64,000 bases of DNA, taken from Anolis carolinensis (taxonomy: Eukaryota). Position 1 is the stretch's first letter, and every line of letters starts with the position of its first letter. Shown piece after piece: positions 29,996 to 61,711 of this stretch. The notes below the pieces were generated by a model that saw only the letters and a list, made by a program, of their open reading frames with translations, ran no database searches and was not told the origin of the DNA. The position numbers and the translations under genes were made by a program. Where the stretch lies: assembly GCF_035594765.1 (NCBI RefSeq), contig NC_085841.1:45677636-45741635 (forward strand), in the 5' to 3' direction.

Positions 29996-30046
29996 ACCAT
30001 CTGAAGGAAGAGATAATTCAGAGACACATGCAAAAAGCAGCTCAAG
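29996..30046 (+). CDS. KIF6: KIF6 coding exon (HLKEEIIQRHMQKAAQ)
   Basis: ttctacag| acceptor, |gtaggt donor, phase 1-1. Confidence 0.92.
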
Positions 30047-33785: not shown

Positions 33786-36193
33786 TAATTCTAAATTGTC
33801 TCACTTTTCCTATTTTTTAAATATCTTTTGTCCAGTACAATGCTTAGTCCTAATAATGTCAATAATAATTCGAAATCTATGCTTTCATCAGTTTAGAAGC
33901 TTCACAAGGTCTGAAAGTCCAAGCACATATTCCACCAGAACAATCTACTCATGTCCCATTTGAACCACTGCCACCTTTGCTTCTTATGTATAGTAAAAAA
34001 AGAAAAAAAAGAAATGTGTTTTAATATATTGCATGTAAGAGCTTCTACTTGCGTTTTTGGCAAATGTATTCTAGGTATTATCTGATTCCATGCAGTTATT
34101 GCTCTACTTTGGCAAGGATTTGTCTCATGAACATTTTTCATTTTGACTTGTTGAAGTATACAGTGTCAGTTACATGAAGTCTGTATTTGTATGCAACTCG
34201 CAGTACCAAGTAGATTGAGGTGGGGAGGCCTGAAGCTGATTCTGGCCACACACATTCAGTCAAATACACAGCTAGCCAACACATAGGAAATGTTTATAGA
34301 ATGTGTAGGATTGTATCAGCTGCCTTTCTAGAAAAACCATTTGGGTTTGAGTAGAAACCAGGATTCGTGTTACATACTCGTATCTGTCTATATCAATCTC
34401 TACCTCCTTCTTACTGTGATTGCTTCTCTCCTAAATTTTTGTTTTTCAAGCTCTGTTCTCAGTAAATGTGCTTTTGAAGCAACAATTTCTTAGATTCCAT
34501 CTACCTATTTGCACGATAAACCAGCTGCTCATCTATCATACCAGGTAACTGACTAAAATAATTTCAAGGTGGCATAAACTTCTGTTTTTAAAGGAAAACA
34601 GACTTCTGACTGCACCTGTAGTTCATTGACCAACTGTTAGGGATTGAACAAGGGGTTTAAAAGCAAGAGATTATAAGCATCAATCAAAGGCAAATGCAAA
34701 GAGGTGTTGATCTTTCTGAGCGGCTCAACAGCCATGTTGTTTCTTTGTTATGGTTTGAACTCTGCTCTAAATTTGGGAAAAGCCAGAGACAAATCCAATC
34801 TAAGCTGTGAAGCTCACTGGGTGGTCTCAATACATCACTGTATTTCAGCAAACCTACCTCACAGAATTGTGTGGTTCAAAGGATACTATATATCACCAAT
34901 GACAAAGCAGATATATTTCTTTTACATTATGGGACACTATAAGTGAAAATCCAACTATTAGTGGATTTGCTGAATCAATGGGACTGTAAAAGTTTACTTA
35001 AGATGTCTTTATTCAAGAAATCTGCTTTAGCCAGGATTTAGCCCTAAAATCTTCTTGTTTAAAGTTTCAGGGACTACTGTGGCTGCAAAATAGAGACAGT
35101 CAGGAATGGCCAATTAGCACATATTTTGAATCTGTACATACTATAATTAGATTTTTGAAAACCAATTTACTCACCTAGTTTTTTTAAAAAATCATCTTTT
35201 CAAGAATCATATACACATTTCCAAATAAATAATTTAGGACATAAAATAACATAAAATGATACTTATTGTTCTCAAATGAGAAGTAATGTAAAAAGCAATA
35301 ATGTGGAAGAGGAACAAATTCAGAACCCACCATGCTTTAAAAGCCTGCTGGGAGAGAGGGTCTTGGCCGACTACTAAAAGCAAGCCACAAGTATGCCAGA
35401 TATCCTGTTTGGCAGTGCTTTCCAACATCTTGATGTGACTACACATTACCAAAGGTCCTACACTTCTGGTAAACTACTGTTTTATGAGGAAATGGATCAG
35501 AATAGGTATATGCTTACAGTTAGTTCTTACGCAGATTAGAGAAAATATGTGAAAATTACAAGTATATAAAGCAGTTTTAGTTCAGAATATCACCTGTTAA
35601 TTTCTGAAGCTGTATGCATACCTTCTACATTTTCCTCCATCATCCATCAAACTTTTTTAGTTGTGCAAGGTTTTTTAGTTTTTCTTTTGTCTTCCCACTT
35701 GCCCCCTTTCTCTACAGCTTCCTTTACTTGTTTTTTTTTATTCAGTCACTAAAAATGGAATGGTCCCGGATTCCATCGAAAGTACTTTGGCACCAGCTTC
35801 CTAATTGTCTGTCTATTCAGTTTTGCTACTTTCACAAATTCATCTTAGAGCTTTCAAACCCTCTGGGTTGCCCTGTTGATTTTAGTCTGAGCACTAAATT
35901 CAGAGAAGTTTGCTATCATCCAGAAACTTACTACCTTTTAAATGATAGGGACCTTTATCAGTCAGTCATCTATTCCCATTTTTATGGATGGTGTAATATC
36001 TAGTAAAGATATGGCCAGGATATAGGAAAGCATGAGAATTCTAGCCAGCATGCAAATTATATTATACTGAAAACTAAAATTAAGGTTGGGAAGAGGAGAC
36101 AACAGTTGAATATTGGAATTATTGTCATGAACCAGCAATTAAACTGGCTAGAGAAAGACCATGGGAGCATATCATGTAAGGTGGTAGTGGTGG

Positions 36194-37378
36194 TGTTGAG
36201 ACACAGAGGCCTTAAAGAGCCACATACACTATTTAGTCCAACAAAAAGTTTATTGCAAAAAGCTCAGAGAAATTTAACCTCAGTGTCTCTGGCCAAAACT
36301 CAAAGAATTTACCCAAACTGGGCTCCAAAAGGCAAACGGAAAATAATCTGGGTTACACAGAAGGGAAAACCGGATTAAAAAGCAGTCAAAGTAACCAGCA
36401 AACAAGCAGCGCTGTACACAAGAGTTCTAACAGACAGCGCTGCTCCCAAAGAGTTAACTGCAAGAAGGAGTTGCCAAAGACAGCCGTAGTCCAAGAGTCA
36501 TTGCTGAAGAAAGCCAAAGGATACGTCGTTTTCAAGTTGTCAAATAAAGTCGTCGACAAGTCAGTCCACAATCCAGGGAGGGAGAAAGCCACACTCACGA
36601 GAAGTCAGTCCAAGTTGAAGATTCTCAGGTAACACGAACTCCAGGCTGCAGAACCCGAACCCAAAACCCAACACAAGAACAGGCAGCGACAAATACACAC
36701 TATACGTAACCGACACTTTGCCTTCTGCAAAGATTCCCACTGCAGAGACTACTTTTAACTTACACATCATTATCTGATGATGAGCTGGCCTCCACCCCAT
36801 CATCATCTCTTACAGCTGTCCTTGTCTTCACACATGAACCCCTGTTTCCATCCCTCCAGTTCCTCCATCTCTTGTCAAGACTTAGGCTTCCCCATGATTC
36901 TGATGTATCTCCCCTTTGCCAATCCTCATGTACCAAAACCCCCACAAACGTGTCACTAGAGGTTGGGTCTCCACATATATCCCTTATCTCTTGTACCTTA
37001 GTCCAATCCATCGTGTTCTCCCCATCCTAATCACTCCCAGACCCATCATTCCCAGAGAAACCCATAAACGACTCATCATCTGTGGGAGCAGTAAGTATAT
37101 CCCGGATCTTCTTCCTCTCTCGTTCTTCATCTGATTCCTGCTCCCGAGTAACCCTCTTTGTGCCTCTATTCCCATCCACCACATCTCCTTCCTCGCTCAT
37201 TGACTCCCCGCCACTTGAAAACCCTTCGAATGTGTCTTCATCAGTAGGTGCCATAAGTATATCCCGGATCCTTTTCCTTTGCTGTTCTTTTTCTGACACC
37301 TGCTCGCGAGTAGCCCTTTTCCCCCTTCTGGTACTCATATTACTGCTTGCAACATTACTTACTGGCTCTACTACAACA
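36194..37378 (-). mobile_element. Solo Gypsy-type LTR (LTR-C, 1185 bp)
   Basis: TGT...ACA termini; 5-bp TSD GGTGG at 36189-36193 and 37379-37383; minus-strand AATAAA near 36250. Confidence 0.9.
36760..37377 (-). pseudogene. LTR-C U3-encoded frame (~205 codons, one internal TAG at 37027-37029) with three IRDI..PT..[ST]FxG repeats
   Basis: ORFs 37027..37413 and 36760..37011 are in the same frame; 54-aa repeat period; synonymous differences between repeats. Confidence 0.65.
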
Positions 37379-38111
37379 GGTGGTGATGGGGGGGATCCTA
37401 GATTGAACCCCATTTATCAGTACATGTAGGATAACTGTACTGGCCTAAGTAGTTCAAATGACTTTTCTTTCCGAAATAAAAGCAAACCAACATGGGTTCA
37501 TATAATGATGGAAACTAATTGTCCATTGTTTATAGTAAGCAAAATGGAGCATTTCATACAATTAGTGTGTGGAATGTGTCTTAAAAACAGATTGCACGTT
37601 CAGAGAAGAAAAGGGGCTACTGGCTGAAAAAAAATAAAAATGTGCACATGATGCACACAAGTTAAAACATAATAGCAGTATTACATAGACATTCCAGATG
37701 AATGTGTCCAGAAAAAAATACCAACCTCTCTATTCTGTGCAAGAATTATTCTAACCTAAATACCCATGTCAGATAACCATATAACTCAACATTTTGTATT
37801 CTCTCCCAGAATGAGATTACTTTGGAAATACTAGAAGAATAAACTTAAAGTTTACAAACTTTAAACTCATCTAGCAAATTCATTCTTTTCCCCTAATGCC
37901 AACAGAGAGTTGGGCATACTTAGGACCATCAAAATCAGTGGACTTCAATACATGTAATTCTGTGTTGTCTGTAAAAGCCTTCACTAGAAACTGGCCTCTC
38001 TAGATAAATCAGTTGTGCCATACTTGTAAGATAACTGTCTTTCTGGTGCAGAAACATGTACCTTTAGCCCTACATTTGACAGTAATTGCTAACATGCATT
38101 ATATCTTCCAG

Positions 38112-38193
38112 CTGTTGTCAGTCCTCGAGAAATGAATGAACCTGATCCAGTAGAAGAAGCACTTCGGGCACAAATTGAAAAAGAGAAGATAAG
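38112..38193 (+). CDS. KIF6: KIF6 coding exon (VVSPREMNEPDPVEEALRAQIEKEKI)
   Basis: cttccag| acceptor, |gttatt donor (weak), phase 1-2, frame continuous with neighbours. Confidence 0.88.
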
Positions 38194-42645: not shown

Positions 42646-42781
42646 CTATAAAACTATGTTTACTCGCCTGAAAGGACTGAAGATCGAAATTGAACACTTG
42701 CAGCTACTTATGGAAAAGTCAAAGCTGAAGTTGCAAAAAGACTTTGAAGTATGGTGGTCTGCAAATGCAATAGACGTACAG
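42646..42781 (+). CDS. KIF6: KIF6 coding exon (YKTMFTRLKGLKIEIEHLQLLMEKSKLKLQKDFEVWWSANAIDVQ)
   Basis: ctcgcag| acceptor, |gtatta donor, phase 2-0; matches the recalled conserved KIF6 segment YKTMFTRLKALKVEIEHLQLLM. Confidence 0.95.
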
Positions 42782-60831: not shown

Positions 60832-61709
60832 TGTGATGTCTCATGGGCCATGTAGTCCCGTTCCTAGTACTATTGTGGCAGACGAAGAGGGAAACTTGGG
60901 TTTCCCACCGGTCCAGCCAGAATCGGAGGCCCCGCACCTGCAAGATGTTTGCCCTCAAGAAGTCAGCCAAACAAGCCTTGAGCAGAATTCTCCCCCGTTC
61001 TCTCGCAAAGATAATTATAATCGAGATAGAGGCGCTAGGGAGGCGAAGCGCCGAAGCGCCAGAATCGCTGCCAGACAATTAGCTGATTAAGCCTGTTTCC
61101 CTTGGGAAATCTTAAGGAGTCATGCATCTGGACACAGTATGGGTTTCACTTCTTGTTCCCCAGGGAAAGTGTTCCTTGGCGGGAAAACAAGATCCTATAT
61201 AGGTGTTTACCCGCAAGGAGATCCTTGCGGAGTCAATTCGTCAGCTTCAGGAGTAAGATCGTGTGTGGACTACGCTACTCCAGTTCCTTGTTTCCAGGAC
61301 CTTGCCACGGACCTTGTTCTAGTTCCAAACCTGCCTTGTTCCTCGGACCTCGCCACGGACCCTGTTCTTGCTTCTTGCCTCTTGTTGCCTCGTATCAAGT
61401 CTTGTTTGCCAAGAATCTAGTTTGTTTTCCAGCCTTGTTGTCAAGCTCCATTGGACTAAAGGACCCTGTCATTTCCCCACACTTGCTCGGCAAGTGTATG
61501 TTTCGGTTATTGGATTATAACTTTGGACTCTAATATCTCATATTGGACATTGATTTCCTGGACTATATTTGACCTTTCCTGAAAGGTCTACTTCTGAACT
61601 ATATTCTTCACTTGTTTTTATTGACTTTATATATTCCTTTAATAAAGATATTAGATAGATTCTGGTCTCTGCGCATGGTTATTGGTGCTCTGCGGCCTGG
61701 GTCTTGACA
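60832..61709 (+). mobile_element. 5' LTR of Gypsy element (LTR-D, 878 bp)
   Basis: TGT...ACA termini, TATATA 61196-61201, AATAAA 61641, followed by PBS and gag. Confidence 0.92.
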
Positions 61710-61711
61710 GT

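Follow-up and report, generated by a model that had tools for sequence, protein, structure and literature searches.

The window analysed in this work was a stretch of 64,000 nucleotides of the Anolis carolinensis genome (contig NC_085841.1, positions 45,677,636 to 45,741,635), and the feature studied was a dead solo long terminal repeat (LTR) of a lizard Ty3/Gypsy family, located at 36194-37378 on the minus strand. The LTR contains an open reading frame with repeated units (a helix-type segment, an acidic linker and, in two units, FxGF) resembling the peptides that bind the host protein LEDGF. Its features were as follows (positions are those of the window):

36194-37378, minus strand: solo LTR of a Ty3/Gypsy family, 1185 bp, with TGTTG...CAACA ends and no internal region adjoining
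37379-37383, minus strand: upstream copy of the 5-bp target-site duplication, CCACC
36189-36193, minus strand: downstream copy of the 5-bp target-site duplication, CCACC
36249-36254, minus strand: AATAAA near the 3' end of the LTR, candidate polyadenylation signal
36760-37377, minus strand: 205-codon frame starting at LTR base 2, a fossil copy of an LTR-encoded integrase C-terminal tail, as indicated by read-through in relatives and by selection
37219-37278, minus strand: motif 1, RKRIRDIL - MAPTDEDT - FEGF (RKRIRDILMAPTDEDTFEGF)
37057-37116, minus strand: motif 2, RKKIRDIL - TAPTDDES - FMGF (RKKIRDILTAPTDDESFMGF), with an exact D/ExExFxGF and the best match to motif M1 of JPO2
37027-37029, minus strand: in-frame TAG, private to the window copy
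36937-36993, minus strand: motif 3, with a weaker acidic linker, worn in the window copy
36847-36867, minus strand: W-x-x-W-R-x-D-G motif, recurring in the tails of chromodomain-less sister families
36760-36762, minus strand: terminal stop codon of the frame

The LTR frame and its copies

A first-pass annotation, made from the letters of the window, had described a frame from 37377 to 36760 with two motifs at a 162-bp period, followed by a TAG and a third unit, and all of these coordinates were borne out. It had also counted three FxGF motifs; three units are indeed present in the frame, but only two of them end in FxGF in this copy. In relatives, the F, G and F of the third motif were present in 55, 54 and 54 of 58 copies respectively, and a sense codon occupied the TAG site in 34 of the 35 copies readable there. 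The synonymous codon differences reported between units 1 and 2 were recovered: 35 codons were compared, 23 encoded the same residue and 10 of these differed in codon, including all seven of the changes originally listed. A regular expression for the motif, composed after the motifs had been seen, matched twice across the six frames of the window (motifs 1 and 2), and gave 0 matches in 1,051,169 bases of reversed loci; shuffling the codons of the frame 20,000 times did not produce even one motif. A W-T-[KR]-V helix was also seen to recur in FxGF-bearing tails.

Copies in the genome were 88-94% identical to the window LTR (40 scored of 1604 candidate places), exact LTR-end matches numbered 98, and in the protein-level copy search 150 of 9073 candidates were scored. 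Among 30 inspected loci, the target-site duplication was exact in 19, one base off in 6, and absent or cut in 5; most copies are therefore solo LTRs, since exact or near-exact duplications flank 25 of the 30. Two loci lacking the duplication (L009 and L027) were considered as full-length elements and turned out not to be full-length. The candidate polyadenylation signal would place the coding part of the LTR in its unique 3' region (U3). The window copy itself probably makes no protein, because it has no pol, contains an internal stop and is in antisense orientation within a probable intron.

Named homologues of the tail were exclusively Anolis carolinensis gene models, and outside these a single assembly protein was found in databases where transposon proteins are poorly annotated. 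Pfam recognised no domain in the LTR frame (best E=0.079), and two Atlas searches with the tail gave no usable match, returning just integrase C-terminal families with scores below 0.9. A single match in a viral contig was discarded as a chance match inside a Mu-like phage gene.

Joining of the frame to pol and position of the chromodomain

Copies with an internal region contained Ty3/Gypsy gag and a pol in the order protease, reverse transcriptase, RNase H and integrase (PR-RT-RH-IN). In these relatives the LTR frame was found to be attached to a translated open reading frame, with pol crossing the polypurine tract and entering the 3' LTR. In two copies (L173 and L174, with 89% and 85% identity to the window LTR across the aligned coding part), the junction from the GPY/F module to the LTR preserves the frame of the motifs; a third (L172) is 93% identical over 619 nt and has the same junction, but with a frameshift just upstream. 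This last copy, the closest three-motif copy joined to an integrase (G000:C19:473000-482999), is situated immediately downstream of a long array of C2H2 zinc fingers. Among 61 distinct GPY/F ends, 35 were open to the LTR start, which they reached 37-38 residues past HPVFH, and 28 of these 35 reached at least one FxGF; 6 others, all of the chromodomain family, reached the LTR after 106 residues, and 20 stopped earlier or at the locus edge.

Pfam Chromo (PF00385) was detected on the pol of a sister element (L222, E=1.4e-8) and was not found on the pol of three motif-bearing elements (L227, L173 and L195), in which the GPY/F module PF24626 follows the integrase core. The motifs are thus an integrase C-terminal tail, located at the place of the chromodomain of the sister family, and this position makes a tethering role plausible.

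The chromodomain-less elements formed one clade in each of two trees, comprising 21 of the 24 rows of a DNA tree (99/100) and 10 of the 14 rows of a tree of integrase proteins (100/100); in the latter, the chromodomain family of Anolis and a chromodomain integrase from medaka fell outside it. On parsimony, the chromodomain was lost in the clade and not gained elsewhere; this is a parsimony reading only, because the trees were midpoint-drawn with long-branch warnings and no root was applied. A third Gypsy lineage, neighbour to L173, is also without a chromodomain.

The window contains another Gypsy LTR (60834-61710, plus strand), belonging to the chromodomain family (L222, L223 and L228). The pol of that family also enters its own 3' LTR, after the chromodomain, and its tail has an acidic xLGF stretch and a RRSARIAA end, which we take to resemble the nucleosome acidic-patch anchor of HMGN proteins. 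Families of the clade and the chromodomain family were often nested in each other's LTRs or internal regions (L104/L137, L138, L179 and L228).

Selection on the tail

Changes acquired after insertion were expected to be neutral, and variants common to many copies to reflect the active parents. In 58 copies, the variants present in at least four copies comprised 35 synonymous, 50 non-synonymous and 0 stop changes, vs. 66, 232 and 13 respectively for singletons (p=0.0004); applied to the non-coding LTR, this test gave p=0.15. With CpG columns removed (57 copies), p was 0.003 in frame vs. 0.18-0.88 in five control frames. Only one shared indel (12 bp) was located within the frame, vs. 14 outside, and the pairwise omega (ratio of non-synonymous to synonymous rates) between natural tails was 0.22-0.51 in 6 of 7 pairs. 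Shared non-CpG variants were 10 synonymous and 10 non-synonymous in the motifs, and 20 and 41 outside them (p=0.06). Shared variants and omega both point to purifying selection on the tail, as had been proposed for the peptide from codon usage, and FxGF was found to be kept across the family.

Sister families with different numbers of motifs

The number of motifs differed among sister families: one in L183, L205, L227 and L229, two in L176, L193 and L195, and three in the family of the window. [quoted passage not shown] The one-motif family is very young, with an identical LTR pair in L227 and an open pol frame of 1214 residues in more than 100 of the 150 matches listed; its motif (KRLRDIFAAPSDEESFEGF) has an exact D/ExExFxGF and is the one that most resembles JPO2 M1 in form. 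The first-pass annotation had invoked multivalent use of the motifs, and this did not hold as a requirement: multiple motifs are not needed, the most abundant young family seen having one. An Anolis gene model for glucosidase II alpha (P0010) contains a piece that matches part of the integrase end or tail of the one-motif family at 92% identity, which suggests either an insertion in that gene or a mis-annotation.

Similarity to LEDGF ligands

A TND-interacting motif (TIM) combines a helix, which is obligate, with an acidic linker 8-16 residues long and, optionally, FxGF, the last being specific to the recognition of LEDGF and HRP2, according to the available text of PMC9987994; the consensus of motifs binding the integrase-binding domain (IBD) of LEDGF is D/ExExFxGF in the available text of PMC8022399. 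Motif 2 matches this consensus exactly. The motifs of the element aligned without gaps to JPO2 M1 (KEVADIFNAPSDDEEFVGF), with matching residues in the putative helix, where the hydrophobic anchors align, and with the same proline and 8-residue spacing, and the acidic linker of motifs 1 and 2, which includes S/T, has 8 residues as in JPO2 M1. In three PDB searches with tail sequences, the top match was each time 6EMO, in which the JPO2 M1 peptide is joined to the IBD of LEDGF as a fusion, with E=0.0012 for a 20-row profile; the JPO2 sequence that the first-pass annotation had quoted was confirmed in the same entry.

Candidate receptors are available in the host, whose genome encodes PSIP1 and a second PF11467 gene, which we take to be HDGFL2-like. 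An intronless PSIP1-like copy with a stop within the IBD was also found (L188, G000:C2:143718346-143718648), and is probably a processed pseudogene. When lizard LEDGF 402-500 was modelled together with motif 2, the complex scored 0.37, vs. 0.02 for the best of 3 controls, with a contact agreement of at least 76% and a partner pLDDT (predicted local distance difference test) of at least 60; no interface was returned. Such models are judged by a mark that 51 of 78 solved pairs and 2 of 108 mismatched pairs reached, in a benchmark without peptides; passes at or below 0.60 include all 4 mismatches that passed, and are more often wrong unless the pair is likely beforehand. The modelling called for by the first-pass annotation thus lends the pairing weak support, and the result may be memory on the part of the model, because a similar complex has already been solved.

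Host intron context

Three candidate exons of a kinesin KIF6/KIF9-like host gene were located around the LTR, on the opposite strand:

29996-30046, plus strand: candidate host exon upstream of the LTR, with splice signals and a phase match
38112-38193, plus strand: candidate host exon downstream of the LTR, phase-compatible with the upstream candidate
42646-42781, plus strand: host exon with a KIF9-type domain (PF23735, E=2.6e-16)

The location of the copy in an intron, claimed in the first-pass annotation, is consistent with its antisense position between phase-compatible exon candidates of a KIF9-domain gene, though the support is that of sequence only. One intronic copy is no evidence for gene-body targeting.

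Proposed mechanism and rival explanations

We propose that the tail, as an extension of pol in place of a chromodomain, binds LEDGF/PSIP1 or HRP2/HDGFL2 and tethers the integrase to chromatin, an account to which we give a slight balance of probability taken as a whole. The pol frame of the genomic RNA would end within U3 of the 3' LTR, and the integrase would bear a disordered tail with one to three helix-acidic-FxGF motifs. These would dock on the IBD of LEDGF/PSIP1 or HRP2/HDGFL2, proteins whose PWWP domain holds nucleosomes methylated at H3K36, and transcribed genes would thereby become favoured sites of insertion. Binding may be tuned by CK2-type phosphorylation of the linker, and extra copies of the motif may add avidity. 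The parts of this account differ in strength: the tail quite probably stays on the mature integrase, it binds LEDGF or HRP2 with nearly as good a probability, and the chances that such binding biases the insertion sites are about even.

Several observations weigh against the proposal. The protease of the element might cleave the tail off. The expected insertion bias was not seen at the scale of chromosomes: sequence outside the six large chromosomes makes up 15.3% of the genome, but contained only 6 of 98 three-motif LTR ends (depleted, p=0.008) and 4 of 41 one-motif junctions (no enrichment, p=0.39), and the share on C1 and C2 did not differ from that of the chromodomain family (67/139 vs. 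78/189, p=0.22), all these being crude counts confounded by purging. Several copies are nested inside other retroelements. FxGF is dispensable for activity in the clade, because the young family without it thrives. Regarding the motifs themselves, motif 1 has D where D/ExExFxGF has E, motif 3 has a weak linker and matches the consensus partially, and the 6EMO matches obtained with single tails were not significant (E=0.34 and 1.6), 6EMO being the sole match in each search. Constraint was strongest in the motifs, yet extended over the whole tail, and omega was 1.37 in one close pair.

Some of these points favour a different role, in which the tail binds a TND-fold host protein but not for site choice: the partner might be IWS1, TFIIS, Elongin A, MED26 or PNUTS, or else LEDGF/HRP2 might serve for chromatin retention, integrase stability or proviral transcription. 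The thriving sister family without FxGF fits the class of FxGF-less TIMs (available text of PMC9987994), no bias was seen at the scale of chromosomes, and complex modelling cannot separate the members of the TND family. This explanation is nevertheless on the unlikely side, since the tail stands exactly at the chromodomain place, called a putative targeting domain in the available text of PMC3059260, and FxGF is described as specific to LEDGF/HRP2 in that of PMC9987994.

It is less probable still, and rather improbable in itself, that the tail is a selected but generic acidic/basic extension, used in nuclear import, phosphorylation or particle assembly, with a coincidental likeness to JPO2. 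Selection reaching beyond the motifs, the LTR-encoded tail with an acidic xLGF stretch in the chromodomain family, and the single-sequence PDB values (E=0.34-1.6) would all fit such an extension. A generic extension does not account for the match of helix residues, proline and 8-residue spacing to JPO2 M1 (E=0.0012 with the profile), for the duplication of the unit twice followed by its retention, or for the lack of any motif in 20,000 shuffles; F, G and F were moreover the sole invariant columns in the 20-row alignment, an argument that is partly circular in that the regular expression used to select the rows required FxGF.

That the LTR frame is a stand-alone gene read from its own ATG (37337), encoding an accessory protein or a host-co-opted peptide apart from the integrase, is very improbable: an ATG is present at codon 14 in 32 of the 37 copies read, the first 190 codons are stop-free in 25 of 58 copies and some copies are represented by automated gene models (P0001, P0005 and P0006), but older subfamilies lack the ATG, the frame is open from LTR base 2 and continuous with pol, singleton variants are neutral, the window copy has a private stop, and the coding region, placed in U3, would precede the likely promoter.

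Comparison with known systems

The tail is real and under selection, and represents an apparently undescribed form of a targeting module of known type, for which a specific candidate receptor can be proposed. Among the top-ranked results of literature searches that covered few subscription papers, none described a TIM/FxGF tail on the integrase of a retrotransposon; no paper found there combined "TND-interacting" and "retrotransposon", and the string "transpos" does not occur in the available text of PMC9987994.

The elements share with the sushi-like chromoviruses (medaka P0013, and L222 and L228 in Anolis) their gag (DUF4939/Retrotrans_gag, CCHC), PR-RT-RH-IN and GPY/F (SH3_Tf2-1), but the lizard clade lacks the chromodomain stretch (about 68 residues by spacing) and has an LTR tail with FxGF. 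Short C-terminal tethers are known in other integrases: that of murine leukaemia virus (MLV) binds the ET domain of BET proteins, that of Ty5 binds Sir4 and that of Ty1 binds AC40. These resemble the proposed lizard tail as short mimics of a host ligand in a disordered integrase tail that set the choice of target, and differ in the host factor and in the chromatin state; to our knowledge, none of them is LTR-encoded.

The closest architecture is that of the plant CRM group A chromoviruses, in which the integrase tail (CR motif or putative targeting domain) comes from the 3' LTR at the position of the chromodomain (available text of PMC3059260 and PMC3605345). In both cases the pol frame enters the 3' LTR at that position, an analogy of architecture only. 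No partner of the CR motif is named in the available text on these CRM elements, whereas the lizard module, found in a vertebrate, imitates a short linear motif of the host for which a candidate receptor can be named, and its tail would be expected to target transcribed and not centromeric chromatin. If the proposal is correct, a host partner can be named for an LTR-encoded integrase tail, unlike those of the plant CRM elements.

The cellular TIMs and IBD-binding motifs of JPO2/CDCA7L, MLL1, PogZ and IWS1 share with the lizard motifs the hydrophobic helix-type segment, the 8-residue acidic linker with S/T, and FxGF. A transposon-derived LEDGF partner has a precedent among these, in the form of a domesticated host gene, because PogZ is transposase-derived (available text of PMC8022399). 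The lizard motifs, as putative ligands, differ in being carried in one to three copies by the integrase of an active retroelement and in being encoded by its LTR.

LEDGF tethering is regarded as a lentiviral speciality that operates via a folded integrase surface. Lentiviral integrase contacts LEDGF through a pocket of its catalytic-core dimer, and not through a linear FxGF motif. The predicted tether of the lizard elements, and the predicted insertion into transcribed gene bodies, are the same as for lentiviral integrase with LEDGF/p75/HRP2 (available text of PMC9987994), and non-lentiviral retroviral integrases did not bind LEDGF in the available text of PMC1802576. We suggest tentatively, with somewhat less than even chances, that a vertebrate Ty3/Gypsy lineage swapped a heterochromatin-type chromodomain for an LTR-encoded mimic of LEDGF/HRP2 ligands, independently of the human immunodeficiency virus, and that the number of motifs tunes its preference. 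If so, families with a chromodomain, with no FxGF and with one, two or three motifs would constitute, in one genome, a natural series of switched integration preference, and a retrotransposon copying a cellular FxGF ligand would represent a second, independent route to the host factor used by lentiviruses.
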